NCBI GenBank assembly: GCA_021739985.1
Contig: JAIPAR010000003.1
Location: 1-51,700 of the forward strand
DNA length: 51,700 nt
Direction: 5' to 3'
DNA from: Bacteroidales bacterium
GTDB taxonomy: Bacteria > Bacteroidota > Bacteroidia > Bacteroidales > M50B96
Shown: positions 31,835 to 49,729 of the stretch, in pieces
Position numbering within the stretch: the first letter of the stretch is position 1
Layout of the letters: each line of letters opens with the position of its first letter
The notes under the pieces: generated by a model
Seen by the model: the letters and a program-made list of their open reading frames with translations, nothing else
What the model was told of the DNA's origin: nothing
The model's database searches: none
Position numbers and translations under genes: made by a program

Positions 31835-31947
31835 AATGATTGTTTTTGAAATTCGGTCAAAAGTATCAAAATTCCGGGAGATTGGTTGATAAGGCTTGAT
31901 AGGGAGTTGAATCAGCTACTGATCATCAGGTTTATGCATGCAGCTTT

Positions 31948-32020
31948 ATGGTTAATGATAAATGGTTAATGATTGATGGTTAATGATTGATGGTTAAAGA
32001 TTGATGGTGAATGATTATTG
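31948..32020. repeat. 14-bp tandem microsatellite (about 5 copies of ATGGTTAATGATTG)
   Basis: Units are ATGGTTAATGATAA / ATGGTTAATGATTG x2 / ATGGTTAAAGATTG / ATGGTGAATGATTATTG. It abuts the stop of the YqhA-like gene and lies upstream of the ABC-F gene. The same motif forms the leader of array 2 at 49198. Confidence 0.75.
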
Positions 32021-32023
32021 ATA

Positions 32024-32560: not shown

Positions 32561-32623
32561 ATATAAACCGGATTTTGATTCGGGGGTTCATTCTTTTAAA
32601 TTTTATTAACCACAGGAGAGCTG

Positions 32624-33004: not shown

Positions 33005-33132
33005 TTTCGATAGATAATAAATATAGTTACTTGCTAATATACTGCAACTTGAATGGGGATTTGAAATTTTACGTCGAATGCAGGTTCTATTTTGTGGTTT
33101 AGTACTATTGATTCATAGCTGGGATATTTTTT

Positions 33133-33840
33133 AGCCACGGATTCACGAATTGAGTAGCCACGGATTCACGAATTGGTTAAGCCACGGATTCACGAATTGG
33201 TTAGCCACGGATTCGCGAATTGAGTAGCCACGGATTCACGAATTGGTTGAGCCACGGATTCACGAATTGAGTTAGCCACGGATTCACGAATTGGTTGAGC
33301 CACGGATTCACGAATTGGTTGAGCCACGGATTCACGAATTGGTTGAACCACGGATTCACGAATTGGTTAAGCCACGGATTCACGAATTGAGTTAGCAACG
33401 GATTCACGAATTGGGTAGCCACGGATTCACGAATTGGGTAGCCACGGATTCACGAATTGGTTGAGCCACGGATTCACGAATTGGTTAAGCCACGGATTCA
33501 CGAATTGAGAAAGCCACGGATTCACGAATTGAGAAAGCCACGGATTCACGAATTGAGAAAGCCACGGATTCACGAATTGAGAAAGCCACGGATTCACGAA
33601 TTGGTCGAGCCACGGATTCACGAATTGAGTTAGCCACGGATTCACGAATTGAGTAGCCACGGATTCACGAATTGATAAGCCACGGATTCACGAATTGATT
33701 TAGCCACGGATTCACGAATTGGTTGAGCCACGGATTCACGAATGTGTTTGCCACGGATTCACGAATTGATTTAGCCACGGATTCACGAATTGAGAAAGCC
33801 ACGGATTCACGAATTGGTTGAGCCACGGATTCACGAATTA
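33133..33840. repeat. tandem repeat array 1: about 30 copies of a 23-24-bp unit (core AGCCACGGATTCACGAATTG plus a 3-4-nt variable tail)
   Basis: Counted directly: 30 units. The 20-nt core is essentially invariant, with only 3 units carrying a single core substitution. Each unit is followed by one of about 10 different tails (AGT, GTTA, GTT, AGTT, GTTG, GGT, AGAA, GTCG, ATA, ATTT). One unit near the 3' end is broken (cacgaaTGTGTTTg). Non-coding. The last unit supplies the final codons and stop of the MFS gene. Confidence 0.9.
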
Positions 33841-35015
33841 CATGATTTGGGGTGGGGGATGTACAAAATAAAATAGCCGGCAACCAGGACAGCAACTATC
33901 CCTGAGCTAAGAAAGGCTGCCGTTGCTCCAAACTGATACCAAACAAAGCCGGTTAGCGAGCTGGCCAGCATAGTGCCGATGCTCTGAAAACCTGCAAAAG
34001 TCCCAATTGCTGTAGCTGTATCTTTTTTCTCCGATATATTTGAAATCCAGGCTTTCGAAATGCCTTCTGTAGCAGCGGCATAAATTCCATATAAGAAAAA
34101 CAAAATAGCTATCCATATCAAATCTTGGCTAAACGCCATGCCCACATACACAACTCCAAACATGATTAATCCACCTACAAAAATGCGCTTCAAACCGATT
34201 TTATCAGCTAAAATCCCCAATGGAAATGCAAAAAGTGCATAGATCAAATTATAAAAAATATACACCCCAATTACTGCTGTATCACTTAATCCGGCTTCCT
34301 TTGCTTTGAGCAACAGAAATACATCGGAACTATTAAAGAGCGTGAAAACTAAGAGACCAACCACCAATTGCTTATAAGCTGCCGGACTTGTTTTCCAATA
34401 GCTCAAGAATGAAAAAAAGCGAATCTTTTCGCTTGGTTTTGGTTGATAAGTGGGTTTATCTTTTATCAGAAAGGAGGATGCAATTGCCAACAAACCTGGA
34501 GCTAAGGCTAACAGGAAGAGTGTCTTATAATCCTCGGGATAAAAATACAGATATAGCAAAGCTAGTAAAGGGCCAATCACAGCTCCCAGGGTGTCCATTG
34601 ACCGATGAAATCCGAAAACTTTTCCTTTAGTGGCCGGTGTCGCTTCGTCAGATAATAAGGCATCTCTGGCTCCTGTTCGGATTCCTTTGCCAAATCGGTC
34701 CATCGTTCGGGCTAAGAAAATCCAGACCGGGAATACAAACAGAGCCATCATTGGCTTTGAGATGGCACTTAAAGCATAACCAAGCTGTATGAATGGAGCT
34801 CTTTTCCCACTAACATCTGAGCGCTTCCCAAAATAGCCTTTACTCAAACCGGCTGTTGCTTCCGCCAATCCCTCCAATATCCCAATAAGAACAATTGAAA
34901 ATCCAATGGTTTTCAGATAGATAGGCATGATTGGATATAGCATCTCACTGGCCATATCAGTAAATAGGCTTATCAACGATAATACCCAGATTGTCCGTGT
35001 AAGATACTTCCTCAT
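33831..35015 (-). CDS. MFS transporter
   Basis: 394 aa, 12 TM helices with the characteristic MFS loop motifs. The C-terminal ...NS* codons are read from the first unit of repeat array 1. Confidence 0.8.
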   Translation of the reverse strand: MRKYLTRTIWVLSLISLFTDMASEMLYPIMPIYLKTIGFSIVLIGILEGLAEATAGLSKGYFGKRSDVSGKRAPFIQLGYALSAISKPMMALFVFPVWIFLARTMDRFGKGIRTGARDALLSDEATPATKGKVFGFHRSMDTLGAVIGPLLALLYLYFYPEDYKTLFLLALAPGLLAIASSFLIKDKPTYQPKPSEKIRFFSFLSYWKTSPAAYKQLVVGLLVFTLFNSSDVFLLLKAKEAGLSDTAVIGVYIFYNLIYALFAFPLGILADKIGLKRIFVGGLIMFGVVYVGMAFSQDLIWIAILFFLYGIYAAATEGISKAWISNISEKKDTATAIGTFAGFQSIGTMLASSLTGFVWYQFGATAAFLSSGIVAVLVAGYFILYIPHPKSCNS

Positions 35016-35018
35016 GCT

Positions 35019-35489
35019 TTAATCGCCTTCCAACATTAGGGTTTCATTTTTAGCCTGGAGATACTGAATTAGTTCGTTCAGTACATCCCGCAGGTCAACC
35101 AACTTTGGCATTGAAATGTTTTCGTTTTCTAAATTCTTTAACAACTCTAAGGGTATTTGAGCAGCCTTCTCCTCCAACGCTTTGCCTTTTTCGGTGAGTT
35201 TGATAAGAACTTGGCGCTCATCGCTTTGTGAGCGTGAGCGATGAATAATGCCGTTCATCTCCATTCTTTTCAATAAGGGAGTAATCGTGTTAGTGTTTAG
35301 GAGAAGTTTTGTAGTTATTTCACTCACCGTAATGGAATCATTTTCCCATAAAACCATCATCACCAAATATTGTGGATAGGTGAGGTTTAACCTCGACAAA
35401 TAGGGTTGATATTCACGGGTAATCAGCCTTGATGCCGTGTAAACCGGAAAGCAAAGCTGATTACTGAGTTTGAGTTGTTCGTACGGCAT
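35019..35489 (-). CDS. MarR-family transcriptional regulator
   Basis: 156 aa. Winged-HTH region LTYPQYLVMMVLWENDSITVSEITTKLLLNTNTITPLLKRMEMNGIIHRSRSQSDERQVLIKLTEKG. Confidence 0.8.
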   Translation of the reverse strand: MPYEQLKLSNQLCFPVYTASRLITREYQPYLSRLNLTYPQYLVMMVLWENDSITVSEITTKLLLNTNTITPLLKRMEMNGIIHRSRSQSDERQVLIKLTEKGKALEEKAAQIPLELLKNLENENISMPKLVDLRDVLNELIQYLQAKNETLMLEGD

Positions 35490-35494
35490 GGGTA

Positions 35495-35977
35495 TTAGTC
35501 TAAATACTTAGCAAGAAATTTGTCAATCGTTTCCGGCTTGGTAAAAGGAGAAAATCGTTTAACAGGTTTCCCATTTGAATCAATTAAAAATTTAGTAAAA
35601 TTCCACTTAATTCGGCTCCCAAATGTACCATTTAATTTGCTTTTCAAATACTTGTAAATGGGATGTGCATTCTCCCCATTTACGTCAATTTTGGCAAACA
35701 TCGGGAACGTTACGCCGTAATTAATCAGACATTCTTCCTGAATAGTTTTGGCATCGCCGGGTTCCTGATTGGCAAATTGATTACAGGGAAAACCCAGGAT
35801 TACAAAATCTTTCGGGAGGTATTTTTGGTACAATTTTTCGAGTCCGTCGTATTGCGGAGTTAATCCACATTTGCTGGCTGTGTTAACTATCAGAATCGTT
35901 TTTCCCCGGTAGGACTCCATGCTAATTTCTTTACCTTGAAGACTTGTAGCAGAGAATGTATAGAAAGGTGTATTCAT
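35495..35977 (-). CDS. glutathione peroxidase
   Basis: 160 aa. GPx signatures: active-site Cys in NTASKCGLT, FPCNQFANQEPG, and WNFTKFLI. Confidence 0.9.
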   Translation of the reverse strand: MNTPFYTFSATSLQGKEISMESYRGKTILIVNTASKCGLTPQYDGLEKLYQKYLPKDFVILGFPCNQFANQEPGDAKTIQEECLINYGVTFPMFAKIDVNGENAHPIYKYLKSKLNGTFGSRIKWNFTKFLIDSNGKPVKRFSPFTKPETIDKFLAKYLD

Positions 35978-36423
35978 TTTTTATATCGTTTTAGATTATA
36001 TCGTTTACGATACAAAAATATATATCTTTTTCATCATGGAAGAATTTATGTTCTTAAAAAATGATAAAAAGCCAATATAAATAAAGGACACAAAATCCCT
36101 TTGGGATCGCATCATAAAACGATAACAAATTGCGATATACAAATAATCCCTTCGGGATAAGACCATTAAATTAAATCAGTAGCTCAGATAAAAAAATTAG
36201 ATAGAGAGTCGAAGTGCCATAAGGTTGGAAATCAAAGAATCAGCCTTTTGGCGCTTCTTTTGCGCGGGTTGCCAGCATTCTATTCCAGAGATAGCAGCGT
36301 GGAACCCGCGCCAGAAAAATAGGAAGCATCCGTTTTCTATTAATATTGCACCTCAACGACCTTAGGCTGAGCACGTCTTTGTCTAGACCCATAATCCTAA
36401 TAGTAATCGGGAGGATGGGCTCA

Positions 36424-36575
36424 TCGCCAAATCAATAAAACCTTGAAGGTCTAGAAAGAGGGGATAATTGACCATTCAACTACCGATAACATTGAAGGTA
36501 TCGTGGTGCGCCTTTCAATAAAAACCTTGAAGGCCTAGACAGAGGGAATAATTGAAGATCAAACTACCGAAAACT
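36424..36575. repeat. two tandem direct repeats of about 65 bp, about 85% identical, inside an 840-bp ORF-free block
   Basis: TCAATAAAACCTTGAAGGTCTAGAAAGAGGGGATAATTGACCATTCAACTACCGATAACATT versus TCAATAAAAACCTTGAAGGCCTAGACAGAGGGAATAATTGAAGATCAAACTACCGAAAACTT. Followed by a perfect 16-nt palindrome cccgaaagctttcggg (36585-36600). Confidence 0.5.
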
Positions 36576-36818
36576 TTTCCCGAAAGCTTTCGGGATTAAC
36601 CTTAGCGAGCGTTAGGGATTGGAGTGGAAAGCCCGGAGCGAGCCACTCCTACGAGACGGAGATAGGAGCGAGGAAAGAGGATTTCACGGATTTGAGCGGA
36701 TTACACGGGGGCGCGAGCGAGGACTTGAAACGGAAAGCCCGACCCGAAGGGGAACGCCCAAAACAATTTGAAATATCGGGAAGATTAGAAAAGAAGATGC
36801 AAAAGAAATCAAGCTTAT

Positions 36819-37208
36819 TTATTGCCGGAGCCATTGAATAGCAGCCGGCCTGGAGGAAAAAATACGTACTATAAAGCCAATATGCTTATTGGCCTCGCTT
36901 TCAAAAAGCAGGCAGAGAGCAGTATTCCTCGGCTCACTGACAATCATAGCCTGTTTTTTATCCTTTAAAACAGGTTCCAAGGTTGCTAAGAAATTGACTA
37001 TCAGATCACAATCGGAAACCGCCATATCAAAATAAGCTTCAGAATAATCAGTCAGTAAATTGTATTTCAATTGTGTAAATTCTTCCATCTTGAGCAGTTC
37101 AGTCCATGCCAATCCAATTTCTTCCTTATTAAGCACGCCGGTATGCGTGTAATGGATAGTCTTTTGTGGATGATTCACAATTAATGAGAAATTTGTTTCG
37201 GCAGCCAT
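36819..37208 (-). CDS. hypothetical protein (129 aa)
   Basis: Intact ORF, co-directional and 17 bp downstream of the pentapeptide-repeat gene. No recognisable motif. The size is compatible with a small alpha/beta STAS-like domain, but this is unsupported. Confidence 0.5.
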   Translation of the reverse strand: MAAETNFSLIVNHPQKTIHYTHTGVLNKEEIGLAWTELLKMEEFTQLKYNLLTDYSEAYFDMAVSDCDLIVNFLATLEPVLKDKKQAMIVSEPRNTALCLLFESEANKHIGFIVRIFSSRPAAIQWLRQ

Positions 37209-37225
37209 AGGAGAATCTTTTTAGA

Positions 37226-37798
37226 TTACATTTCAATGCGTAAATCGTATTTTTGGAGCAGGCCGCTGAGCCCGGAGTTTGAGAATCTGGCTTTCTTTAA
37301 TCGATTGTTCTCGGGATCAATGATAAAATTAAAGGCAGTTCGGAAATCCGCCTTCTCCAGATTAGTCCTGTCGAACTGAGCATTAAGCAAATCACAGGAA
37401 TCAAAGACTGCTTCGCTTAAATTACATTCTGTAAAATCAACTTCTTCCAGCCGGGAACCAGCAAACCGTATTTTCTTCAAATTCCGCTTATAGAAAGTAG
37501 AATGATTCAACTGACAGTTTTCAAACGTAAAAGACAGACCGAATTCATTGCAGGTATCGAAAGCTAATCCCAGCATTTTACAATTCTTAAAGTGAGTATC
37601 CCGAAAGGTGGTTAGGATTAGTTTGGTCATACTCAAATTGCAATCTTCAAATCGGCAATCGGTAAACACGCATTCTGATAAATCACAGCCCGATAAATCG
37701 CAGGATATGAACCGGCAATCTTCGTACTCTCCGGTGGGAAAGCTCTTTAGGGTATAATTGATGTTTTCGAAGACCAAGTCAGATTGATACGATTTCAT
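37226..37798 (-). CDS. pentapeptide-repeat protein (Qnr/McbG/MfpA-like right-handed quadrilateral beta-helix)
   Basis: 190 aa. Consecutive A(D/N)LxX pentapeptides: CDLSGCDLSECVFTDCRFEDCNLSMTKL...FTECNLSEAVFDSCDLLNAQFDRTNLEKADF. Confidence 0.8.
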   Translation of the reverse strand: MKSYQSDLVFENINYTLKSFPTGEYEDCRFISCDLSGCDLSECVFTDCRFEDCNLSMTKLILTTFRDTHFKNCKMLGLAFDTCNEFGLSFTFENCQLNHSTFYKRNLKKIRFAGSRLEEVDFTECNLSEAVFDSCDLLNAQFDRTNLEKADFRTAFNFIIDPENNRLKKARFSNSGLSGLLQKYDLRIEM

Positions 37799-37911
37799 CG
37801 GATAAAAAATTGTTTATCAGGCATATATTGATATGATTGACCAATTTGGTCACTCAATTATTTGTCCAATGAAGTTAAACAATTAAACTAGTCTGTAAAA
37901 AAAAATCTTGC

Positions 37912-39474
37912 TTATTCTATTCCCTCGTTGTAGCTCGATTCTTTAAATTGCTTGTCAAGTAAGTGGGCAATTTCGGCAGGATTTGTAATCGGCATTTTTT
38001 TATGGCTCATTTCGTAATCCAAGAGCTCGGCTTTTTTAACTTTTTCAAGACTGGGAAGGTTGGTTCGATTCGTTGTTCTGATATGTTTCCCTTCTTTATT
38101 TACCAGAATAAGTTTCGGAAGAAATACTCCTTTCCGTCCAATAAAAGCATCCATTATTTCAACACTTCGATCAAATTCGTCTTTAGTTGTTCTTCCAAGC
38201 GCTTCATACACAAAGATTGTACGGTTATCCCAGGTATGGACAGTGGCATGACTTTCGGAGATATTATCTTCAATGGTTCTTCCAGTATTTAAAGTATCGT
38301 GTCCCGAAGGGATTAACATCACTTTACCGCCGCCGCCTTCTATATTTGCGGCATACTTTGGTACCGTAATGCCGGAAAGCCAACCTTGTAGATGTTTCAT
38401 ATAAATCTTTCCTACCTGAATAGGAGTGATGAAGTGAACAATTCCTTTTTCTTTATGACATTGCAACAGGTAATAGGGATGAACACCAATCCAAAACATT
38501 CTGCGAAAAGTTTCCGATAAGGTTTTATAATAGTCATTCACGTGATTTAAAAGAACCGTCTGATTTTTAATTGTAAAACCATGATTTCTTATTTTTTTCA
38601 CAGCCTCATGAAGCTCTTTAGTAATTTCTTGATAATGATTGATATGCGTCATGAAATACACATATTTTTCAATTCCTTCATTGAATTTGTTAACTGATTG
38701 TTTGATAAGGTTTAGTAATTCATCGGTGATAGCCATGGGCATGACCACGGGGACTCTAGTAGCAATTCGGATAGCGCGGAGATGCGGAATTTTGCTTAAT
38801 TCCTCCAGGACGTATTGCAGGCGTCTTTTACTTATCATTAATGCGTCACCTCCTGTAACCAAGACTTCATCAATGTTTTGATTATAAGCGATGTAGAATA
38901 ATCCTTTATTAATTTCGGCAGAATTAACATCCACCGAAGAATCGAGTGATTTAGCGCGTTGGCAGTGAACACAATAAGAGGCGCAGCTGGTGTTTTCGGC
39001 CACAAAAAGTGCTACACGATTGGGATATCGTTGATAGCATGCGCCATACGATCTTGAACCTTCCTGCATGGCTCCTTCGATACCGGTATCGGGAAAAAAA
39101 AGATTAGCCGGAGTCGGTACACTCTGCCAAAAGATTGGGTCTAAGCGCCTTTCCGCTTTTTCGCCGGGGAGCATTTCCGGATGAAAGGGGTCTTCTTGTA
39201 TGAGTGAAGCATAATAAGGTGTAATTCGCAAAGGCTCTTTCCCCTCAGACCTTAACTGGTTGATAACTCTTTCGATTTCAGAAGCTTGAAATTCAGTTAA
39301 ACGAATTACTTTTTTTAACTGATGCACAGAGCGAATGGCATTCTTAAGTTGCCAGTTCGGATTATTCCATTCCTTTTCGGTTACATCTTTCCATAAATCA
39401 ATGGAAGTAAATTTTCGGCCTTCATACAAAAAAGATTGTTTTAAACTCATGTTTTTCATTTTAGTTTTATTCAT
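37912..39474 (-). CDS. KamA-family radical SAM aminomutase (lysine/glutamate 2,3-aminomutase-like) with an approximately 100-aa C-terminal extension
   Basis: 520 aa. Radical-SAM cluster motif CASYCVHCQR (compare CxxxCxxC of KamA). The N-terminus (NPNWQLKNAIRSVHQLKKVIRLTEFQASEIERV...ITPYYASLIQ) resembles the KamA N-terminal region. A Gly-rich PLP-region is present (IEGGGGKVMLIPSG). Confidence 0.8.
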   Translation of the reverse strand: MNKTKMKNMSLKQSFLYEGRKFTSIDLWKDVTEKEWNNPNWQLKNAIRSVHQLKKVIRLTEFQASEIERVINQLRSEGKEPLRITPYYASLIQEDPFHPEMLPGEKAERRLDPIFWQSVPTPANLFFPDTGIEGAMQEGSRSYGACYQRYPNRVALFVAENTSCASYCVHCQRAKSLDSSVDVNSAEINKGLFYIAYNQNIDEVLVTGGDALMISKRRLQYVLEELSKIPHLRAIRIATRVPVVMPMAITDELLNLIKQSVNKFNEGIEKYVYFMTHINHYQEITKELHEAVKKIRNHGFTIKNQTVLLNHVNDYYKTLSETFRRMFWIGVHPYYLLQCHKEKGIVHFITPIQVGKIYMKHLQGWLSGITVPKYAANIEGGGGKVMLIPSGHDTLNTGRTIEDNISESHATVHTWDNRTIFVYEALGRTTKDEFDRSVEIMDAFIGRKGVFLPKLILVNKEGKHIRTTNRTNLPSLEKVKKAELLDYEMSHKKMPITNPAEIAHLLDKQFKESSYNEGIE

Positions 39475-39792
39475 CAGGTTTTTAGCCTGATGCTACATTT
39501 TTACTCTATTTCGGTTGCGACCTTTCGGTGACTTCTGAATTAGAAAATGTATTTATTATACAATGAATGCATGAATCTCTTTCCATTCAAACGAATTGAA
39601 AGTCAACTTCCTAATTTAGTTGAATTCAATCTGATGCTTTCTTTTGCTACCGCTTTGTTGGCAGCATTCTAGTTCAGTCGTCCGACTTGTCTATTTTCCT
39701 CAACGTCATGATAGGACATTTTATTTTCTGATGCTTTCTCTGGTTTCCCGTGATATTGGGATGCCGGAGGCTTTCTACAGCCTTTAAATCAA

Positions 39793-42477
39793 TTAGTTAT
39801 CCAATTTGATTAACTTAAAGGTAAATTTGTCTTTCCCGGCATACAAGGTAAGAAAATATACTCCTTCCGGCAAATTAGAAACATCGAGATTTCTTGATTT
39901 CGGGTAATTGCTTTTCGTAATGATATGATTTCCAATGATATCTGTGATTACATAGAAGTCTGGGTTCGAATTTCCCTGAATGTTGATTATTCCGGTGGTT
40001 GGATTCGGAAGAATTCTAAATCCTTTTTGACCAGGCAAATCTAAAATTGATAAACCAAACACTCTGTGGCAGGAGGAAGTGTCAACGCATCCATTATGCT
40101 CAATTATAACCGCATAATTTCCGGTTACTTCAGCGGTATAGCTTTGGTTTGTTGCGGATGAGATAGCTTGATTCGTTGTACAATCATACCATTGCCAGGA
40201 TGATGCATTCGCCGAGGCTGTGAGCAAGGAACCTGAAATGATAACCGTAGTATCTAACTCAATAACTGTAATATAGATTTCCTCCGGCTGGGATTGCCCG
40301 GTTGAAGCAATTGCCACAACAGATACATAACCACTTGTATTTCCGGCTTGCAATACTATTGTATTCGAAGTAGATGATCCAGTCCATCCGGTTGGAATAG
40401 TCCACTCATAGGAAGTTGCGCCGAAGGTAACAGGGATACTGTATTCAATTGTTTCACCCTGACATATTTGGTATGACCCAATAACCTGTCCTGGAATAAC
40501 AGGAGGATTTCCTCCCAGGTTGATATCATAGCAGGAGGAAGTGTCAATACATCCATTTTGCTCAATGATAGCTGCATATGAACCTTCCTGTGTAGCAGTA
40601 AAGTTGGATGAATATGCTCCCGGAATTACAAGTCCGCTGATGCAATCTATCCATTGCCAGGAAGTGGCTAAATTGCTCGCAGTTAAGGTTTGTCCGGATA
40701 GTGAAAGGATATTGTCAACTTCGATGATGGTTACTATGAATGATTCAGGCGAGGATTGCCCGGTTGCCCCGACGGCAGTTACTGAAATGGTACCACTCAG
40801 ATTTCCGGTGTTGACAGTAATGGTGTTGCTATTGGAAGACCCAGACCAGCCGATTGGCAATGTCCAGCTATAGGAGGTAGCGCCAAAAGCAGCCGGCACC
40901 GTGTAAGTTACAGTTTCACCCGGGCATGCTACTGCCAAGCCTGTAATAGGACCAGGCAGGAGAAGCGTTTCATAACAGGATTGAATGCTGAATGCAGATG
41001 CCGTAAAGCTCGTGTCAACTCCATTTGTCGTTTGAATGATAAAACGTAAGTAAAGATTTGTAGAACTAATTACCGGAGTTGTCCATTGATAAGTACCTGA
41101 GTTTGGTATGTTTGTAGCAATATTTGTATAAGGTCCTGCCTGTCCGGTGGATGATATTGCAATAGAAACAAATGCAGAATCTCCTCCGGGAACAGCCGAT
41201 TTCCATTTAATAAACTGGACAGAATTCATGCAAAAGATTTCGTTTCCTTGGGGAAAGACGGGATTTATGCCCAAGGAGGGGGCCGTTCCGTTTCGAAGAT
41301 AAACCCGCATCATATTTGCGCCATTGTTTTTTCCCCAATAGGCAATATCCAGTGAGCCATTATGGTCAAAATCGGCTAGTTTCATATCACTGCAAGTAGT
41401 TTCAGCGATAGCAATCGAATCGCTCAACAGCCAGGTGCCGGCGCCATTGCCGGAGTATATTTTTATTTCTCCACTGGTGAAAGCCAGCAAATCGATATAC
41501 CCATCGTTATTCATATCTCCCAGGGCAGGATATAGCATCCCTATCGAAGTTCCGGGAAGTCCGGTGTTCATCGGTGTCCATGATGCTGTGCCTGGTTCGT
41601 AGTCAAATACCTGCGGGTAACCAGCATATGAAATTGCAATTTCTTTGGCTCCATCCTGATCAATATCTGCCAATGCAAATCGGGGATAATAGCCGTAGGT
41701 GGGTGGAACTGTCCATCCGGCATTCATGCTTTCGAATTGCCCTGTGCCGGAATTTCGCCAGATTTGTCCCTGCTGTCCATTGAACTGTGTATTATTGGCC
41801 ATAAAATCGACATATCCGTCATTATCAAAATCTCCAAAAATTAAATTATGTCCTGAATTACCAACTGTTGCACCACTGAATACTGACCAGGAGCCATTCC
41901 CATTGTTTCTATAAATCCATACCCCATCAGGCGATCCGAAGGAATTAGCACCTAAATCGAGGAGCCCATTATTATCTACATCTGCAAAATCGCAACCAAA
42001 CATTCCCCAAACCTGCCCTTGCATGGCCAGATTATCATCATATGGAGTCCAACTATATCCGGTGCCATCTCCTAAAACAACTTCCAGTTTTTGATCTCCA
42101 AAATCTGGAATCCCTGGATTTGATTCATAATGATGTATTCCATAAGCAACATCCATATCTCCATCATTATTAACATCACCGAGGGCAATCCCACCATATC
42201 CAAAACCTCCTGACATCGTTTTGGTCCATACTGTTCCATTCCCATTGTTTTTATAAACCATGAGTCCCTGTTCATTCGTATAACCCGGGTTCATATGATC
42301 ACCAACGGAAATTAAATCAATATCTCCGTCAGCATCGATATCTCCAGCTTCAAATTCAGTTGGTCCACTTTCAAAAATGTCTTCCAAACCGAGTGTAACT
42401 AAGGTATAGTTTGATTGGGAGAAAGAGTTAAAGCCCAATAATACGGTAAAAAATGCTGTGTATAGAATCTGTTTCAT
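39793..42477 (-). CDS. T9SS-secreted FG-GAP-repeat (integrin-alpha-like beta-propeller) protein with Ig/PKD-like domains and a C-terminal sorting domain
   Basis: 894 aa with a signal peptide. At least 7 FG-GAP Ca-binding loops (DIDADGDIDL, VNNDGDMDVAY, DVDNNGLLDL, DFDNDGYVDF, DIDQDGAKEIA, DMNNDGYIDL, DFDHNGSLDIAY). Two internal repeats of about 135 aa (…LPGPITGLAVACPGETVTYTV… / …IPGQVIGSYQICQGETIEYSI…). T9SS CTD FRILPNPTTGIINIQ...FKLIKLDN. Confidence 0.85.
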   Translation of the reverse strand: MKQILYTAFFTVLLGFNSFSQSNYTLVTLGLEDIFESGPTEFEAGDIDADGDIDLISVGDHMNPGYTNEQGLMVYKNNGNGTVWTKTMSGGFGYGGIALGDVNNDGDMDVAYGIHHYESNPGIPDFGDQKLEVVLGDGTGYSWTPYDDNLAMQGQVWGMFGCDFADVDNNGLLDLGANSFGSPDGVWIYRNNGNGSWSVFSGATVGNSGHNLIFGDFDNDGYVDFMANNTQFNGQQGQIWRNSGTGQFESMNAGWTVPPTYGYYPRFALADIDQDGAKEIAISYAGYPQVFDYEPGTASWTPMNTGLPGTSIGMLYPALGDMNNDGYIDLLAFTSGEIKIYSGNGAGTWLLSDSIAIAETTCSDMKLADFDHNGSLDIAYWGKNNGANMMRVYLRNGTAPSLGINPVFPQGNEIFCMNSVQFIKWKSAVPGGDSAFVSIAISSTGQAGPYTNIATNIPNSGTYQWTTPVISSTNLYLRFIIQTTNGVDTSFTASAFSIQSCYETLLLPGPITGLAVACPGETVTYTVPAAFGATSYSWTLPIGWSGSSNSNTITVNTGNLSGTISVTAVGATGQSSPESFIVTIIEVDNILSLSGQTLTASNLATSWQWIDCISGLVIPGAYSSNFTATQEGSYAAIIEQNGCIDTSSCYDINLGGNPPVIPGQVIGSYQICQGETIEYSIPVTFGATSYEWTIPTGWTGSSTSNTIVLQAGNTSGYVSVVAIASTGQSQPEEIYITVIELDTTVIISGSLLTASANASSWQWYDCTTNQAISSATNQSYTAEVTGNYAVIIEHNGCVDTSSCHRVFGLSILDLPGQKGFRILPNPTTGIINIQGNSNPDFYVITDIIGNHIITKSNYPKSRNLDVSNLPEGVYFLTLYAGKDKFTFKLIKLDN

Positions 42478-42980
42478 TTGGGGAGGAATTTATGTTTTGT
42501 TAAAAAAACAAAAAATTCTTCAAAAAATCAACAGAGAAAACATTTTTTTTAGAGATAATTCTCTGATAATAGGGACATAAATAGGAGAAGTACTTGGCAT
42601 ATGTTTAAAACATAAGAGCACTTTCCCACCTAACTCTCGGGGCTTTCGATTCGAGTGTTTTTGTGACAAAGCGAAGCATATTTTCATCAGCAATTTCGGG
42701 ATTTTTGCTGGTGGCGAATTCCATAGCTTCAATGCAGGTAGCTTTTGCAGGGTCTTTTTGCTTTTCAGCAAAGGCTAATAACTTGAAGAGGCTTATTGCT
42801 CTAAGAGATGCTCTTCCGGATTTATAGCTTGCTTAGACCCTTCCCATTCAAACAATTATTTGAATGATTGGGGAAATCTAATTTCAGCTCTTCGCTAAAC
42901 TCCTGCAACAAAATGCTTCATTCCTGATATTTTTGAATAACCTGAATGTACGAATAAGTTTGGGAGAGCGTGTAAATGAA

Positions 42981-44495
42981 TTATGGTTTTGGTTCCTCTG
43001 CCAAATCTTCGGTTTCAGGTTTTTGATCAGCTCCTTTCAAAAAACTGGGTAAGTTCAATCCGGCCATATTGAACAAATCATTTAGAGGTGGAACTGTTCT
43101 CATCATTCCGGAAACAAAGTTAGCGGTCGAAGAGTTGCCATTGTCATGGGAGCCATTTCCCGAATCCCAAACGGTGATTTTGTCAATTTTAATATTTTTG
43201 ACAGCCTCAACCTGTGTTTTAACTAATTCAGGAAGTTTCTCGATTAAAAGGAGTTGGAAGGCTTTATTGGGGTCTCCGCCTGAAGCTTCAACTACTTGTT
43301 TGTATCCTTCGGCTTGTTTAGTCAGAATTTCATAGAGCCCTTTAGCTTCAGCTTCCATTTTGGCAAATATGGCGTCTGCTTCACCTTTTGCATTAACCCG
43401 AATAGTTTCGGCGGCAGCTTGTGCTTCAATAATGGCTCTTTCTTTAGCGATTTGAGCCGGGACAACAATATTTGCAATTTGGGTTGAACGCTCCCTTTCC
43501 GAACGGGCTAACTCTGCTTTTTGCTCAGCCACATAAGATTCTTCGAGCGCTTTGGCTTCTTGTACTTTTTCTGATGCAAGAGCAATTCGTAAAGCTTCAG
43601 CTTCTTTTTCCCGACGGTTAGCTTCTGATTTTGCGATGGCGATTTTGGCCTCATTTTCACCTTGAATGGCGACTGCATTTGCTTCGGAGGTTTTTACACG
43701 GGTATCTCGCTGAGCCTCAGCTTTTCCAATGGTTTCATCCCTTACCGCAGTAGCAATACTCACTTCTTTGTCTTTAATTGTGTTAGCAATCTTAACATCT
43801 CTGTCACGATGTGTTTCGGCGATTTGCGTATCTTTTTCCCGGTCGGCCATTGCTTTTCCGGTTTCTCCAATTTTTTCCTGCTCAGCAACGCTGATTTTTG
43901 CTTCATTGATAGCTTTTGCAGCAGCTTCTTTCCCTAATGCTTCAATATACCCGGATTCGTCTTTAATATCCGTTACGTTGACGTTAATGAGTTTTAAACC
44001 AATCTTTTTAAGTTCACTATCAACATTCTTTGAGATATTATCCAGAAATTTATCCCGATCGGAGTTAATTTCTTCAATGGTCATGGTAGCAATTACTAAA
44101 CGTAACTGTCCAAAAAGGATATCTTTGGCCAGCTCTTGTATTTGCTCGGAGGTTAGTCCAAGTAAACGTTCAGCTGCCGTATTCATGGAATCAGATTCGG
44201 TTGATATGGCAATTGTGAATCGACAGGGAACATCAACACGGATATTCTGCCGACTCAGTGCATTGGTTAAATTGGCTTCAATCGACAAAGGTTTTAAATC
44301 CAGAAAAGCATAATCCTGAATAACCGGCCAAATGAAAACGCCTCCTCCATGGATACATTTGGCTGAAGTGCCGCCCGTACGTCCATAAACTACTAAAATC
44401 TTATCAGAAGGGCAACGTTTAAATCGTGAGACTAAAGCGGTGATTGTAACAAACAGGACTACTACAGCTACAACTATAATGGTTATCGGGGTCAT
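42981..44495 (-). CDS. flotillin / SPFH-domain (band 7) protein, YqiK/FloT-like
   Basis: N-terminal TM helix. SPFH domain and a long Ala/Glu-rich coiled-coil flotillin domain (…AEAQRDTRVKTSEANAVAIQGENEAKIAIAKSEANRREKEAEAL…). Start placed at MTPITIIVV… (44495), which removes the overlap with the NfeD-like gene. The ORF track's start at 44540 is an alternative. Confidence 0.85.
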   Translation of the reverse strand: MTPITIIVVAVVVLFVTITALVSRFKRCPSDKILVVYGRTGGTSAKCIHGGGVFIWPVIQDYAFLDLKPLSIEANLTNALSRQNIRVDVPCRFTIAISTESDSMNTAAERLLGLTSEQIQELAKDILFGQLRLVIATMTIEEINSDRDKFLDNISKNVDSELKKIGLKLINVNVTDIKDESGYIEALGKEAAAKAINEAKISVAEQEKIGETGKAMADREKDTQIAETHRDRDVKIANTIKDKEVSIATAVRDETIGKAEAQRDTRVKTSEANAVAIQGENEAKIAIAKSEANRREKEAEALRIALASEKVQEAKALEESYVAEQKAELARSERERSTQIANIVVPAQIAKERAIIEAQAAAETIRVNAKGEADAIFAKMEAEAKGLYEILTKQAEGYKQVVEASGGDPNKAFQLLLIEKLPELVKTQVEAVKNIKIDKITVWDSGNGSHDNGNSSTANFVSGMMRTVPPLNDLFNMAGLNLPSFLKGADQKPETEDLAEEPKP

Positions 44496-44505
44496 GGTTA
44501 TTTGA

Positions 44506-45069
44506 TTATATAGATTCGACAATAAGTACATCACTTTCAATTTTTACGATTTTAACTACTGCTCCGGAGCTGATTTTTTCGTGCTCAGTCATCGCTTCCA
44601 ATTCATGAACGGAGCCTTTTACACTGATGATGATTTTTCCTTTCCCGGACTTATTGGCCGGAATAGTTAAATAAACATCAGCAGTCTTATTCAAAGTATC
44701 TATAAGCCGAAAAGAATTATTCTCTGCCAGCTTTTGAAGTTGTTGGATGACCAGGAAAAATAAGAGAACAAATGCAATTCCGATTGTAAATGATAGTAAG
44801 ATGAGTAGGGTGGGGTTCGACACAGTCGTGTAGAAAGATATGCCGGTCCAGCTAAAACCTAAAAGGAAATTAATAAGGTTTCGTAACGAGAAGAGTTGAA
44901 ATGGAGCATCTGCACCTTCCAAATCACCTTCAAAATCAGCATCAACCCCATCGGATGCATCTGCACCAACAAAAGTCATGATAGTTTGAATAATAAAAAT
45001 CAGACTGGCCGGAATGGCAATGAACCAAAATGTCTGCAATAAAGGTTCTAACTCTTTAAATATTTCCAT
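44506..45069 (-). CDS. NfeD/YqiJ-like membrane protein (flotillin-associated, C-terminal OB-fold)
   Basis: 187 aa. Three to four TM helices and an acidic loop (DASDGVDADFEGDLEGADAP). C-terminal beta-rich region (GKIIISVKGSVHELEAM…VKIVKIESDVLIV). Sits immediately upstream of the flotillin gene, as in yqiJK operons. Confidence 0.6.
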   Translation of the reverse strand: MEIFKELEPLLQTFWFIAIPASLIFIIQTIMTFVGADASDGVDADFEGDLEGADAPFQLFSLRNLINFLLGFSWTGISFYTTVSNPTLLILLSFTIGIAFVLLFFLVIQQLQKLAENNSFRLIDTLNKTADVYLTIPANKSGKGKIIISVKGSVHELEAMTEHEKISSGAVVKIVKIESDVLIVESI

Positions 45070-45288
45070 GGTAGATTTAATTATTAATGCCTCTCAGGTT
45101 GTAAAACTCATTTCGTTTCAGAAACCGGCATTATAGTTGGTCAAATTTACTCTTTTTTAGGTCCAATTCTCAATGTAAGCACGGAAAATGAGTCGAATTC
45201 ATATTTTATGCAACATCTTTTTGGGAGATGATTGACCTTCTCATTTTAAGTTCCCTGTGAAGACTTTTGCGGAAGTGTGGGGGATCTC

Positions 45289-46077
45289 CTATTTCAGCAA
45301 TAAATTGAGAATGAATAAGATGATTACTACAATTAGGAACCATCGAATGAAGCCGGCGCCTTTGTGAACGGCCATTTTACTGGCGACAATACCACCGGCT
45401 AAATTCCCAATGGCAGATATCAATCCAATGTATAAATCCATTTGTCCTTCCAAACTGAAAACCAAAATAGCGAAGGGGGTATATAAAAACACTGTAAAGA
45501 CTTTAAGTCCGTTAGCTATTACTAAATCGTAGCCGGATACCAGCACCATCGCTGCGAGCATAAAAATGCCCACTCCGATGTGGATAAATCCCCCATAAAT
45601 ACCAATGATGAAGTAGATAAATAGTTGAAAATAAGTTGGTTTCTCTTTGACCTTGTCAGCTTGTCCCTGAATCCACTTTTCAGGCTTAAAAAAGAGAGTG
45701 CCTAATAACAGCACCATTACAACGGCAATGATTTTTTCAAAATATTTCTCATCGATTTCTGCGGCCAGCAAGGCACCCAGAATAGTCCCGGCAATGATAG
45801 GAACGCCCATGATTAAACCGGTTTTCACCGCAAGCTTTTTGTGTTTCAAAAAGTATAAACTGGAAGCAAGAGTTTGCATGACCACGCCAAGTCGCATGGT
45901 GCCATTGGCAACTCCCGCCGGAAGTCCCAGCATCGTAAATAAACTAAAATTGATAATCGAACCGCTGCCGGCAATGGTATTGATGATGCCCGTTAAAAAC
46001 CCGGCCAGAATGATAATGAGAATAATCCAGGGTGAATATAAGTCGATATGCTCGAGGTTAAAGAATAGCAAGGTCAT
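45289..46077 (-). CDS. TauE/SafE-family (DUF81) sulfite/anion exporter
   Basis: 262 aa, 7-8 TM helices with Gly-rich helices typical of TauE/SafE (…GFLTGIINTIAGSGS…, …IGIYGGFIHIGVGIF…). Confidence 0.8.
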   Translation of the reverse strand: MTLLFFNLEHIDLYSPWIILIIILAGFLTGIINTIAGSGSIINFSLFTMLGLPAGVANGTMRLGVVMQTLASSLYFLKHKKLAVKTGLIMGVPIIAGTILGALLAAEIDEKYFEKIIAVVMVLLLGTLFFKPEKWIQGQADKVKEKPTYFQLFIYFIIGIYGGFIHIGVGIFMLAAMVLVSGYDLVIANGLKVFTVFLYTPFAILVFSLEGQMDLYIGLISAIGNLAGGIVASKMAVHKGAGFIRWFLIVVIILFILNLLLK

Positions 46078-46082
46078 GGAAA

Positions 46083-46745: not shown

Positions 46746-46822
46746 GCTGCAAAACAAGTGATTTTTTACCGAATGGAATATAGCGTTCACCGGTTTATTT
46801 CCGGATTCTCTCGTAAAGCTAA

Positions 46823-49141
46823 CTAGTTAATGACAATTTTACTTTGATGAATGGTTTTTCCATTTTGCAGGAATCGAAGTGTAAACAATCCCTTCCAGGA
46901 TGGATGTAAAGGGATTTGACTTGTATATTTTCCTTCGGGAAGGAGCATGGATTCTACCATTCTGCCCTGAGAATCGAATACTTGCATTACGATTTCCTTA
47001 TTCGAATTTTTGTCAATGGTGATGCTGTCGCTGGCTGGATTTGGAAAGATTTTCAGTTTGTTGCTCAGTACATTTTCATCGATGTTTAAACTGCGATCTC
47101 TGAATGCCAGCGTATATTCACCTTTCTCTACTTCGGTGGTCGATAAATAACCTACACGGGTAAATCCCTGGCGAATAAAGCTGATTTCCTGCCAGTCGGT
47201 TTCAGGTCCCGTTCGGTAAAGTAGTACCAATGAATCTGCTGACATTGGATAGGTAAACCAGGTATAATCGAGCATTCCGCTTGAGGTCGTTTCGCTGGAA
47301 TAATGAAACTTGAACATCCCTGAAAAACCTGGTGGGATATATCCTTGTATCTTCCAATAGCGCGAATTACTTAAAATGTAATTGGGATGAGGAGTTTTGA
47401 AATTATCCGGCGCAATCCAGTTTTGTTCCACTCTTACATAGGCACTGTCGGAGTTTGCATCTATTTCATACTTGAAGTAGGTATCTGCCAGTGTGCCCGT
47501 TGTTCCGGCTTTCATCGTTACCCATTGGTCCGTTGTTGCATCCATATAGTCTTCTGCCGGGTCAAGAATGATGTCGATTGGATCGAAATCAAGTATATAA
47601 GATTGATTTCCAATCGTATCCATCATACTAAACCATTCGTATTGCATACTCAGGTCGGGTTTAAGAAAACCGATTTTTAAGCGTGTATGAATATGGTAGT
47701 TATCAGCATCTTTTTTTCGCTGTCTCACATAAACTGTGACAGCCGTTCCGTTCCCGGCCGGTATAAGTACGGTGGAATCGATGGAAAAATGCAGCCAGCC
47801 GGGTTGATAAATATGAGCATCGAAGAAGGGCTGTAAATCAATCCCGCTGCGGTCGCTGAGATAGGTATTTAAGTCGCTAACCGATACATCATTAAAAGCG
47901 GAATCCTGCATGAGCTGGGTCAGAGCTGCATAAAAAACGCTGTCGCCCAAATATCCACGCAAGCTATGAGCCATATCGGCCCCTTTTTTATAGATGGTCG
48001 ATGAGTAGGTATCTTCATTTCCGATTCCGTAGAGTGGGAGATGGCCTTCCTCATGATGAAGGGTGCGTAAATTCAGCGCATGCCGGCTGCGGGCATAGTC
48101 CTTAGCCGCTTCTTTACCATACACAGCCTCCATGAAATCTTCTTCGAGGAAACTCGCCCATCCTTCGTTAATCCACATGTCTTCAGCGGTTTCACAGGTG
48201 ATGAGATTGCCAAACCAGGCATGAGCAAGCTCATGAGCCATCGTTCGTTCACCCGATAATGTACCATCAATATAACCCGTTGGGAATGCAATATTACAAA
48301 CGTGCTCCATCGCGCCAACAGGTGTATTTACATATCCGATTCGAGGCCAGCGATATGGGCCATATTTACTTTCAAAAGCATGCAAAGCATCCGGAAGATG
48401 TACAAATGAATTCGTATTTCCGGCAATCGAGGGTTGTAGGTAATGGCTAACCGGAATCATTCTTTCAATACCCTGTATCGAATCAATAATAACCTGATAG
48501 TTTGAAACTGCTACAGACGCCAGATACGTGGGAATAGCTTCATCCAGCTTCCAATGATGGATAAATTTATTCACGGGGTAATCTTCCGGGTATGAGTTTA
48601 TATGGATGCCGCTGCAAGTAACTGTATGGAGAATGCCTGTTTTGATAAAGTATTCATAGCTAGCCCGATCGGTAAATGTGTCCACACAAGGGAACCAGGC
48701 TTTGCCCAAATTGTGGGGGTTGGCCCCAAAGCCGACTCCCAGATTAAAAGCAATTCCGGAGCTGAATAGGAATCCGCCCCAACCAGTCGGGTCAACCATC
48801 GGATGCCCATGGTAATAAACATGAACCTGATGATTTTCATTCAAGGATAAAATCGTATCGAAATTCACCGAAATAATCGAGCCATCGTAAGTATATGAAG
48901 TCAGATGGTTGGCTACCACAGAATCGACAGTCAGGTTCCACAATTCTAATTGGATGCTTTGCTGATTGGTTTGCAAAGCTTTAAAAGTCACCAGGCAGGA
49001 GCCTGAGATTTGCTGATTGGTAAAATCCGAAATATCCAGATTGATTTGATAATGAGTCACATCTGCCAGTTCACCGGGAGTTTGGGCGAAAAGCCGGAAT
49101 CCCAGCATTAGACCCATAAAAGTCAGCCAAAAGCCTTTCAT
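46823..49141 (-). CDS. M1-family zinc aminopeptidase with C-terminal T9SS sorting domain
   Basis: 772 aa with a signal peptide. Gluzincin motif HELAHAWFGNLITCETAEDMWINEGWASF (HExxH…E). C-terminal CTD KIFPNPASDSITID…KIVIN. Confidence 0.85.
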   Translation of the reverse strand: MKGFWLTFMGLMLGFRLFAQTPGELADVTHYQINLDISDFTNQQISGSCLVTFKALQTNQQSIQLELWNLTVDSVVANHLTSYTYDGSIISVNFDTILSLNENHQVHVYYHGHPMVDPTGWGGFLFSSGIAFNLGVGFGANPHNLGKAWFPCVDTFTDRASYEYFIKTGILHTVTCSGIHINSYPEDYPVNKFIHHWKLDEAIPTYLASVAVSNYQVIIDSIQGIERMIPVSHYLQPSIAGNTNSFVHLPDALHAFESKYGPYRWPRIGYVNTPVGAMEHVCNIAFPTGYIDGTLSGERTMAHELAHAWFGNLITCETAEDMWINEGWASFLEEDFMEAVYGKEAAKDYARSRHALNLRTLHHEEGHLPLYGIGNEDTYSSTIYKKGADMAHSLRGYLGDSVFYAALTQLMQDSAFNDVSVSDLNTYLSDRSGIDLQPFFDAHIYQPGWLHFSIDSTVLIPAGNGTAVTVYVRQRKKDADNYHIHTRLKIGFLKPDLSMQYEWFSMMDTIGNQSYILDFDPIDIILDPAEDYMDATTDQWVTMKAGTTGTLADTYFKYEIDANSDSAYVRVEQNWIAPDNFKTPHPNYILSNSRYWKIQGYIPPGFSGMFKFHYSSETTSSGMLDYTWFTYPMSADSLVLLYRTGPETDWQEISFIRQGFTRVGYLSTTEVEKGEYTLAFRDRSLNIDENVLSNKLKIFPNPASDSITIDKNSNKEIVMQVFDSQGRMVESMLLPEGKYTSQIPLHPSWKGLFTLRFLQNGKTIHQSKIVIN

Positions 49142-49197
49142 CTTGTATAAAATTTAATCTATTCAAACATACAAAAGATTTATCAAGCAGGTTATAA

Positions 49198-49686
49198 TGG
49201 TTAATGATTAATGGTGAATTCGTGAATTCGTGGCAAAATCAATTCGTGAATTCGTGGCTGATTAATTCGTGAATTCGTGGCTTATTAATTCGTGAATTCG
49301 TGGCTTAATCAATTCGTGAATTCGTGGCTGATTAATTCGTGAATTCGTGGCAGATTAATTCGTGAATTCGTGGCTGATTAATTCGTGAATTCGTGGCTGA
49401 TTAATTCGTGAATTCGTGGCAAAATTAATTCGTGAATTCGTGGCAGATTAATTCGTGAATCCGTGGCTACTCAATTCGTGAATCCGTGGCTGATTAATTC
49501 GTGAATTCGTGGCTTAATCAATTCGTGAATTCGTGGCTTAATCAATTCGTGAATTCGTGGCTGATTAATTCGTGAATTCGTGGCTGATTAATTCGTGAAT
49601 TCGTGGCAAAATCAATTCGTGAATTCGTGGCAAAATCAATTCGTGAATTCGTGGCTTAATCAATTCGTGAATTCGTGGCTTAATCA
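49198..49686. repeat. tandem repeat array 2: 14-bp leader units followed by about 20 copies of a 23-24-bp unit (core AATTCGTGAATTCGTGGC plus a 5-6-nt variable tail). It is the inverted counterpart of array 1
   Basis: Leader ATGGTTAATGATTA ATGGTGAATTCGTG, then 20 units. Tails: AAAATC, TGATT, TTATT, TTAATC, AGATT, AAAATT, TACTC. The reverse complement of the core (GCCACGAATTCACGAATT) differs from the array 1 core at one position. Two units (49456-49500) carry aatCcgtggc, which is identical to array 1. Each unit contains two GAATTC sites. Non-coding, with stops in all plus-strand frames. Confidence 0.9.
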
Positions 49687-49729
49687 ATGAAATAACTTGC
49701 CTGAAAACGATCCTCCTTTTTCTTTAGAA

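Follow-up and report, generated by a model that had tools for sequence, protein, structure and literature searches.

Inverted tandem arrays of a dispersed intergenic word in a Bacteroidales genome and the association of this word with GxxExxY genes

The stretch of DNA analyzed here (the window) comprises 51,700 nt of a Bacteroidales bacterium (assembly GCA_021739985.1, contig JAIPAR010000003.1, positions 1 to 51,700) and contains two tandem-repeat arrays, the first of which neighbors a gene for a small protein of the GxxExxY family. Array 1 occupies positions 33133-33839 of the plus strand with 30 units of 23 or 24 nt, and array 2 occupies positions 49217-49688 of the minus strand with 20 units of the same lengths; their higher-order periods are about 214 nt and 70 nt, respectively. 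Tandem Repeats Finder reported array 1 at 33131-33839 (period 24, 29.9 copies, 90% matches, score 1026) and array 2 at 49217-49688 (period 23, 20.1 copies, 91% matches, score 667). An earlier interpretation made from the letters alone (the sequence-only reading) had delimited array 1 and counted its units correctly, but its start for array 2, 49198, falls in a different, 14-nt repeat at 49194-49216. The 16-mer CACGRATTCACGAATT was found 30 times in array 1 on the plus strand, 20 times in array 2 on the minus strand and nowhere else in the window, where 0.12 matches are expected by chance. These strand counts, together with inverted arms of up to 218 nt (86%), bore out the claim that both arrays are one family in inverted orientation. 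In all, about 1.2 kb of inverted similarity (83-92%) is shared between them.

Each unit consists of GC, an octamer CACG(G/A)ATT, a second octamer CACGAATT and a linker of 5-6 nt. The core of array 1 is GCCACGGATTCACGAATT, that is, GC followed by the octamers CACGGATT and CACGAATT and then by the variable linker, and the core of array 2, read on the minus strand, is GCCACGAATTCACGAATT. The 18-nt consensus common to both is GCCACG(G/A)ATTCACGAATT, or two CACGRATT octamers with a GC clamp, and a 12-nt quasi-palindrome, AATTCGTGAATT, lies within each unit. Array 1 is uniformly of the GGATT type and array 2 of the GAATT type, save two adjacent units at 49450-49491. These two units are of the array-1 type (GGATT, with a GAGTA linker) and form, on the minus strand, a 42-nt patch identical to 33133-33174. 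This is the longest exact inverted match between the arrays, most exact tracts being 18-19 nt long. The patch is a putative inter-array gene-conversion tract, which suggests that the arrays exchange sequence. The linker was also considered as a former third octamer; this was ruled out by eye, GGTTGAGC being unlike CACGAATT.

Array 1 separates an MFS transporter gene from the GxxExxY gene and lies 129 nt upstream of the latter. It is downstream of the MFS gene, whose stop codon TGA (33831-33833) falls within the last unit of the array. The 3' end of this open reading frame (ORF), AAT TCG TGA, is made up of the letters of that unit (33831-33839), and since the end of the gene is read from an array unit, the array abuts or overwrote the native 3' end. 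Array 2 lies between a hybrid histidine kinase gene (stop at 49730, 41 nt away) and the gene of an M1 peptidase of the type IX secretion system (T9SS; start at 49141, 75 nt away). The gene map thus agreed with the placing of the arrays in intergenic spacers upstream of minus-strand genes, that of the GxxExxY protein among them. Fourteen minus-strand genes had been counted between the arrays; the strand was right, but we found 13 clear ORFs of at least 80 aa.

The GxxExxY gene (32624-33004, minus strand) encodes 126 aa. Its product belongs to the family PF13366 (PDDEXK_3)/TIGR04256, with scores of 108 bits (cut-off 22) and 124 bits (cut-off 35), respectively, and carries the GxxExxY and D...ExK motifs. 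Residues G29, E32, Y35, D72 and E82 do not vary, and conservation of K84 is at least 90%. An AlphaFold (AF2) model had a predicted local distance difference test score of 95, and its best match in the PDB by Foldseek was Cas4 SSO0001 (E 1e-4, TM 0.59), with MGME1, lambda exonuclease and RecE also matching. The conserved acidic and lysine residues and the Cas4-like fold point to a minimal Cas4/RecB-like PD-(D/E)XK nuclease, and the protein is thus predicted to be a nuclease whose active site looks intact. At 50% identity the family falls into 8,748 clusters, and it is scattered across bacteria by horizontal transfer; a survey of the superfamily in 2012 listed it as a family of unknown function with multiple transfers (PMC3424549). 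No model in PADLOC or PHROGs matched the protein, and a sequence search of the PDB gave no match. No description linking the family to repeats was found in the searchable literature on GxxExxY, PF13366 and the words described below. Homologs of 250-290 aa (P0245, P0248, P0249, P0270 and others) matched the 126-aa query in two stretches and appear, from these alignments, to be tandem-fused double GxxExxY domains.

The occurrence of the core beyond the window, which had been envisaged from the sequence, was confirmed by scanning one genome per species with the 16-mer: at least 153 occurrences in at least 119 stretches were obtained. Percentages given here are among the matches listed. The R position was A in 150 of the 153 occurrences listed, and 144 of the 153 (94%) lay outside ORFs. 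The GC prefix, which is not part of the scan pattern, was present on 82-92% of the occurrences listed, and a T-rich tract precedes the word. This combination of prefix, T-rich tract, A bias and intergenic position indicates that the matches are not due to chance. Among the matches listed, the 18-nt core is an intergenic word in Bacteroidota and in other phyla. The sequence-only reading had known of no Bacteroidota element with such a unit; it held in that no published description was found, but the unit is not isolated, being a dispersed word that is linked to GxxExxY genes.

Flavobacterium contributed about 70 of the loci listed. There the 18-mer occurs mostly as inverted pairs of the form TTTTTCGCCACGAATTCACGAATT ... 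AATTCGTGAATTCGTGGCGAAAA, separated by an AT-rich spacer of 11-100 nt and resembling REPINs, the hairpin-forming doublets of repetitive extragenic palindromes (REPs). As the T-tract precedes the stem on both strands, the pairs are not canonical intrinsic terminators. Their spacers vary in length and sequence and no target-site duplication is evident, so that they do not conform to miniature inverted-repeat transposable elements. Mini-arrays were found at L123 (4-5 units), L128 (3), L048 (2+2) and L157 (3), metagenome and viral contigs being among these loci, and pure CACGAATT octamer runs occur in metagenome contigs. A two-unit pattern gave 8 stretches in metagenome contigs, either of at most 5 units or pure octamer runs; since short-read assemblies collapse such arrays, this count says little about their rarity. 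The same pattern gave no match in viral contigs. Array 2 had no blastn match among plasmids and phages, possibly owing to low-complexity masking.

Every GxxExxY locus examined was flanked by the word or by a subfamily-specific equivalent, which took the form either of inverted words or of a hairpin on each side. When the loci selected by the motif were searched with the window protein by tblastn, five of them contained a GxxExxY gene, and in all five the word was no more than 150 nt away, usually forward upstream and reverse-complemented downstream of the gene. In one of these, from a GC-rich genome of Chloroflexia, the gene is a pseudogene flanked on both sides by a word hairpin. Six loci of the close subfamily were picked by protein homology alone, and all six had the word or its hairpin on both sides. 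Words or hairpins of the form GCCACGAAT(G/T)CACGAAT flanked the genes of Cloacimonadota (L133), Caldithrix (L139) and Thermodesulfobacteriota (L140) and those of two long-contig metagenome loci (L151 and L153), and a 55-nt hairpin was present in two direct copies at a further long-contig metagenome locus (L152). Among more divergent GxxExxY members, taken from plasmids (L143-L147, L149 and L150), other words were found: CCACAGAGGACGCAGAGGACACGGAGG upstream and CTCTGTGACCTCTGTGTCCTCTGTGGTG downstream in Bacteroides finegoldii (L145), CACAGAGA and TCTCTGTG in Bernardetia (L144), a three-word CGCAGAGG hairpin on each side in Gemmatirosa (L147), CACACGGATTCG and CGAATCCGTGT in Treponema (L143), GGGATT-type heptamers in Persicobacter (L146) and direct-repeat flanks in Prevotella (L149) and Fusobacteria (L150).

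A relaxed two-word pattern occurred at 8.18 per kb within 200 nt of the gene and at 0.091 per kb elsewhere in the same loci (35 vs 4 hits). In addition, inverted-repeat scores of the flanks were above those of 400 control ORFs (Mann-Whitney p = 4e-7). CACGAAT(T/G) words accompanied proteins 60-70% identical to that of the window in Bacteroidota, Cloacimonadota, Calditrichota, Thermodesulfobacteriota and Chloroflexia; C(A/G)CAGAGG words accompanied a second protein subfamily in Bacteroides, Bernardetia and Gemmatirosa; and Treponema, Persicobacter, Prevotella and Fusobacteria had other words. Across the loci compared, the word type was therefore shown to track the protein subfamily and not the host taxon. 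That a nearly identical 17-18-mer accompanies proteins only 60-70% identical in five or more phyla indicates co-transfer of word and gene and a constraint on the word. As to the neighborhoods of the GxxExxY genes, several of those in L133-L138, L140 and L153-L156 are defense-island-like or phage-like, with neighbors such as KilA-N with an SNF2 helicase and an Eco57I-type methylase/endonuclease, Bro-N, or a PLD-SNF2 helicase with an SLFN/AlbA_2 ATPase. No GxxExxY protein was found in viral contigs in the related-locus search.

Within the arrays, core and linker differ strongly in variability. Array 1 has 4 mismatches in 540 core nucleotides and 11 linker types among 29 linkers, and array 2 has 2 mismatches in 360 core nucleotides and 7 linker types among 19 linkers. 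In array 1, diversity per site (pi) was 0.36 for the linker against 0.015 for the core, the core being about 24-fold less diverse, and in array 2 it was about 0.22 against 0.0105. A conserved core with a variable tail, as perceived from the sequence, was thus substantiated, and so was variation between strains. Strain L142, whose GxxExxY protein is 98% identical, shares the array-1 boundary and has identical cores, but its four visible linkers all differ from those of the window, against about 96% identity in the unique flank. In strain L130, at least one further 14-nt unit stands at the place of the window's first unit of array 2. The linkers form one-step mutational series and occur in runs, GAGAAAGC for example four times consecutively; these runs and the higher-order periods indicate growth by multi-unit duplication with the core kept constant. 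Look-ups of the exact proteins in the same or near-identical strains returned only short-read contigs that end inside the arrays, which shows that assemblies are interrupted by the arrays. Of the contigs with close GxxExxY homologs, a large part are shorter than 2 kb, consistent with flanking repeats breaking short-read assemblies at these genes.

These patterns bear on a doubtful but serious alternative, an inert, fast-evolving satellite in which a common Bacteroidota intergenic word, comparable to the heptamer STRR repeats of cyanobacteria, was expanded by slippage, the proximity to GxxExxY genes being incidental or due to insertion into repeat-rich spacers and the uniformity of the cores reflecting recent amplification and concerted evolution. 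The blocks of identical linkers and the 214-nt and 70-nt periods do speak of recent multi-unit duplication. Different words stand at the homologous spacers of relatives (in L131, GGGTTGC before the M1 peptidase gene and ATTCGTG before the ABC-F gene), pure octamer runs exist in metagenomes, and array 2 has no nuclease gene. A satellite of this kind, however, would not be expected to keep an exact 18-mer across orders and phyla when the associated proteins are only 60-70% identical, nor to be enriched 90-fold at GxxExxY genes. Linkers that mutate stepwise beside fixed cores, both within arrays and between strains, are likewise unexpected under uniform neutral decay.

We favor, at slightly better than even confidence, the reading that the arrays are tandemly amplified recognition words of an element which resembles REPs and their transposases (RAYTs, REP-associated tyrosine transposases) and has a PD-(D/E)XK nuclease as its partner, binding of the word by this nuclease being presumed. 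Each array would be a minisatellite-like tandem amplification of the 18-nt word GCCACG(G/A)ATTCACGAATT, and this word would form the stem, or the terminal repeat, of a hairpin element of the REP/REPIN kind that brackets GxxExxY genes in at least six phyla. At the loci compared, the word accompanies the gene and co-varies with the protein subfamily, it is also seen in gene-less inverted pairs, and it is far more conserved than its surroundings. The word may be the recognition or binding site of the propagation machinery, most probably of the GxxExxY nuclease itself. The arrays would have arisen through slippage during replication or through unequal exchange among copies of the word, the cores being kept uniform by selection for binding, by gene conversion or by both while the 5-6-nt linkers drift. 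Array 2 would then be a "solo" amplified copy.

Several observations weigh against this reading. The five loci first compared were found via the motif itself and are hence biased, and for this reason the further loci were picked by protein homology. The GxxExxY gene of the window lacks the canonical inverted flank: its inverted-repeat score is 9, the level of the controls, and the downstream word is degenerate at best. A possible word of this kind, CTCCTGTGGTTAAT, lies just after the stop codon (32605-32620, minus strand); it is weak, was called by eye through comparison with AATTCGTGGCTAATG downstream of the L025 gene, and has no statistical support. No GxxExxY gene lies within 8 kb of array 2 or of the roughly 70 Flavobacterium hairpin loci listed. 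The partner could therefore be another enzyme or a host factor, or GxxExxY genes could insert preferentially into pre-existing hairpins. Moreover, no pair of an empty and a filled site was found among the loci compared.

A wider proposal can be put forward more tentatively, and we hold it to be somewhat less than an even chance. GxxExxY nucleases and subfamily-specific octamer-word hairpins may together constitute a phylum-spanning, previously unrecognised analog of the REP-RAYT system, in which a minimal Cas4/RecB-like PD-(D/E)XK nuclease would be the driver and would recognize the word or hairpin, the gene-less Flavobacterium hairpins would be non-autonomous copies, and the arrays of the window would be recognition sites that were amplified and that may serve the nuclease as landing pads or take it up as a sponge. 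The conserved bracketing word is a candidate substrate for the PF13366/TIGR04256 family, whose function thereby becomes directly testable. If the proposal is true, a second enzyme class would join the REP-type systems of a repeat plus a dedicated enzyme, a frequent reason why assemblies of Bacteroidota metagenomes break would be explained, and the Flavobacterium GCCACGAATTCACGAATT hairpins, for which no description was found in the searchable literature, would be accounted for.

By analogy, the closest known counterpart of the arrays is the REP/REPIN-RAYT system of Pseudomonas and Enterobacteria, including bacterial interspersed mosaic elements (BIMEs) (PMC3116915, PMC3337134, PMC3733652). Both have extragenic words of 16-20 nt, inverted doublets and variable spacers; a single small enzyme gene flanked on both sides; gene-less dispersed copies with occasional ordered tandem arrays and opposite-orientation array pairs; and repeats after stop codons. 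REP clusters are reiterated in tandem (PMC3733652), and in P. fluorescens SBW25 tandem REP arrays include pairs of opposite orientation (PMC3116915). The arrays of the window, in 3' untranslated region (UTR) or upstream-spacer positions, are placed like REP/BIME clusters. The dispersed word behaves like REPs and REPINs in its at least 153 occurrences, 94% of them outside ORFs, and in its frequent inverted pairs 11-100 nt apart. On the other hand, a REP palindrome has a conserved GTAG or CGTC tetranucleotide at one end (PMC3733652), whereas the word described here begins with (T-rich)GCCACG and ends with AATT. The flanked gene encodes the PF13366/TIGR04256 PD-(D/E)XK fold in all loci examined, and the scan of window ORFs gave no Y1 transposase. 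With a PD-(D/E)XK instead of a Y1 enzyme and without the GTAG/CGTC tag, membership in the REP/REPIN-RAYT system fails on two defining features. The systems differ further in that the partner here is Cas4/RecB-like and that of REPs is an HUH Y1 transposase, that the word here is itself built of tandem octamers, that GxxExxY genes occur in many paralogs and are spread across phyla, RAYTs being for the most part single-copy genes of vertical descent, and that the present arrays (30 and 20 units with a 23-24-nt period) are denser than described REP arrays.

Other repeat systems share fewer features with the arrays and words. In 2008 Elhai et al. reportedly described heptamer repeats (STRR) and small dispersed repeats (SDR) in cyanobacteria. 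With these, the present words share 7-9-nt units reiterated in intergenic DNA, differing words at homologous sites of related genomes, and dispersed units of 21-27 nt embedded in such repeats; the sequences and the phylum are different, and we know of no report that associates STRR or SDR with a nuclease gene. The hairpin-gene-hairpin layout, with hairpins as direct copies at L152 and L147, recalls integron gene cassettes (an ORF plus an attC hairpin), but here there is no integrase, attI, cassette array or attC R/L box consensus, and the stems consist of tandem octamers. Plasmid iterons and CRISPR arrays likewise have regularly spaced direct repeats of about 19 nt. CRISPR arrays have repeats of 24-48 nt, unique spacers of 26-72 nt (similar in length to the repeats) and usually cas genes, whereas the core here is 18-19 nt long and its 5-6-nt linker is drawn from 7-11 recurring types. 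Iteron origins have repeats of 17-22 bp beside a rep gene and an AT-rich or DnaA-box region; the size fits, but neither a rep gene nor features of an origin were noted, and the flanks are housekeeping genes syntenic with those of relatives. The window ORFs scanned included no transposase, recombinase, rep or cas gene.

The two arrays are oppositely oriented relative to their downstream genes, which argues against a shared orientation-dependent promoter role. Scans for sigma-70-type promoters and for terminators found nothing in the arrays, and promoter-like sites were fewer than in shuffled controls, this model being unsuited to Bacteroidota. The orientation also bears on the suggestion that a local regulator, such as the adjacent MarR, or a replication protein binds the arrays as repeated sites of the iteron, decoy or UP-like kind, with AATTCGTGAATT as operator. 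We regard this as improbable, even though each unit has a conserved core and carries the 12-nt quasi-palindrome, promoters lie downstream of the arrays and the MarR gene is 1.2 kb away. Such sites would hardly face their downstream genes in opposite orientations, and array 1 is downstream, not upstream, of the MarR-MFS operon. The word is moreover found in many unrelated contexts and phyla with GxxExxY and not with MarR genes. A rep gene is lacking among the window ORFs scanned, and neither a DnaA-box nor an AT-rich unwinding element was noted.

Since they start 0-41 nt past the upstream stop codons, the arrays are probably co-transcribed. Coupled with the ability of units to pair with neighboring units, this would suit a transcribed structured or repeat RNA, such as a CRISPR-like array, a small-RNA sponge or a REP/BIME-style 3'-UTR stabilizer or terminator, which we nevertheless consider the least probable of the explanations. 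A search of Rfam gave no match at gathering thresholds in the window and 18 Flavobacterium loci, and none on the arrays even at E<=1. Folding z-scores of array 1 were only -2.1 and -2.5, similar on both strands and hence not discriminating. The 5-6-nt linkers leave no spacer, cas genes are lacking among the window ORFs scanned, and the T-tracts precede the stems in the Flavobacterium hairpins, unlike canonical terminators.

Two relatives were recovered for comparison of gene order, L131 (M1 peptidase 71% identical) and L132 (63%). In both, TauE/nth joins ABC-F-LigA directly, and the segment of 13.4 kb at 31880-45290 (minus strand), which has no counterpart between TauE and ABC-F in them, is therefore lineage-specific. 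It contains UPF0114, the GxxExxY gene, array 1, MFS, MarR, GPx, an 840-nt non-coding gap, a pentapeptide protein, a KamA-like radical SAM protein, an 894-aa T9SS protein, flotillin and a 187-aa ORF, and no integrase or transposase was found among its ORFs scanned. The 187-aa gene had been labeled NfeD, for which no Pfam match at E<=1e-5 was obtained. The block between the arrays had also been described as not an obvious mobile island; this has to be qualified, given the lineage-specific 31880-45290, to which array 1 and the GxxExxY gene belong. For this genome, the arrays provide hypervariable markers and may be hot spots of recombination beside the lineage-specific segment.

The gene order also gives no support to inversion. 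The sequence-only reading had seen in the inverted arrays a substrate for RecA-mediated inversion of the 15.4-kb block between them, which would give two genomic isomers. The roughly 1.2 kb of inverted similarity and the array-1-type patch in array 2, hinting at inter-array gene conversion, would accord with this. However, the order of M1, nth and TauE and their orientation relative to ABC-F-LigA are the same as in L131, so that no inversion of the block has been fixed, and the genes inside and flanking the block are all co-oriented. Exact tracts of identity do not exceed 42 nt, GC skew is flat from 33 kb with no return after array 2, and no invertase or recombinase was found among the window ORFs scanned. 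Invertible segments (invertons and shufflons) combine inverted repeats with an adjacent site-specific recombinase and are seen in both orientations; here inverted repeats are present but a recombinase is not, and the only orientation seen, in short-read assemblies that are uninformative on this point, matches that of the relatives. We therefore regard inversion as very unlikely.

At the spacers of L131 that are homologous to the repeat sites of the window, other words were found. GGGTTGC heptamers lie upstream of the M1 peptidase gene (1-33, at the contig end), and ctATTCGTGtcATTCGCGtaATTCGTGGC, with the words ATTCGTG/ATTCGCG/AATTCGTGGC, lies upstream of ABC-F (3990-4035). No such words were found upstream of the M1 peptidase gene in L132. 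Word turnover at fixed intergenic sites thus appears, from these spacers, to be fast. In the window itself, a second word type, the 14-nt repeat ATGGTTAATGATTG (4.9 copies), is located at 31948-32016 between the UPF0114 stop and the ABC-F promoter, and two copies of the same 14-nt (7+7) repeat at 49194-49216 abut the promoter-proximal end of array 2. This repeat had been taken as related to the array unit; it has a word-like architecture and adjoins array 2, but homology to the 23-nt unit could not be demonstrated.

The remainder of the window consists of chromosomal housekeeping genes, including those for ParAB, RecR, LigA and a UvrD-like helicase, and T9SS tails are present in window proteins. 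The best relatives of these proteins are annotated as belonging to Bacteroidales or Bacteroidia metagenome-assembled genomes, and the lineage is an uncultured one of Bacteroidia. Up to about 33 kb the GC skew ranges from +0.07 to +0.11; from array 1 onward, as far as the window extends, it is about 0 (-0.05 to +0.04), and cumulative skew levels off at 37-42 kb. This change could be due to foreign DNA, gene-strand bias or a nearby skew turning point.

The 840-nt gap without a credible ORF (35978-36818) contains a 57-nt direct repeat (36437-36493 and 36521-36577, 84%), a sub-threshold match to the Flavo-1 RNA on the plus strand (36600-36748; 27.9 bits vs a gathering score of 42, E 0.0016) and a weak word-like stretch, GGATTTCACGGATTTGAGCGGATTACACGG, at about 36680. 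Compound arrangements of words were seen at two further loci. In the viral contig L167 (2150-2290), the CACGAAT-type word GCCACGAATTCACGAAT and CGCAGAGG-type words are less than 80 nt apart, so that words of two GxxExxY subfamilies stand side by side. In a metagenome-assembled genome of Bacteroidota (L105, 1157-1437), an 81-nt tandem repeat is present in 3.5 copies, each unit beginning with AATTCGTGAATTCGTGGC and continuing with runs of ATCAGCG/GTCAGTG heptamers, a compound array of two word types.

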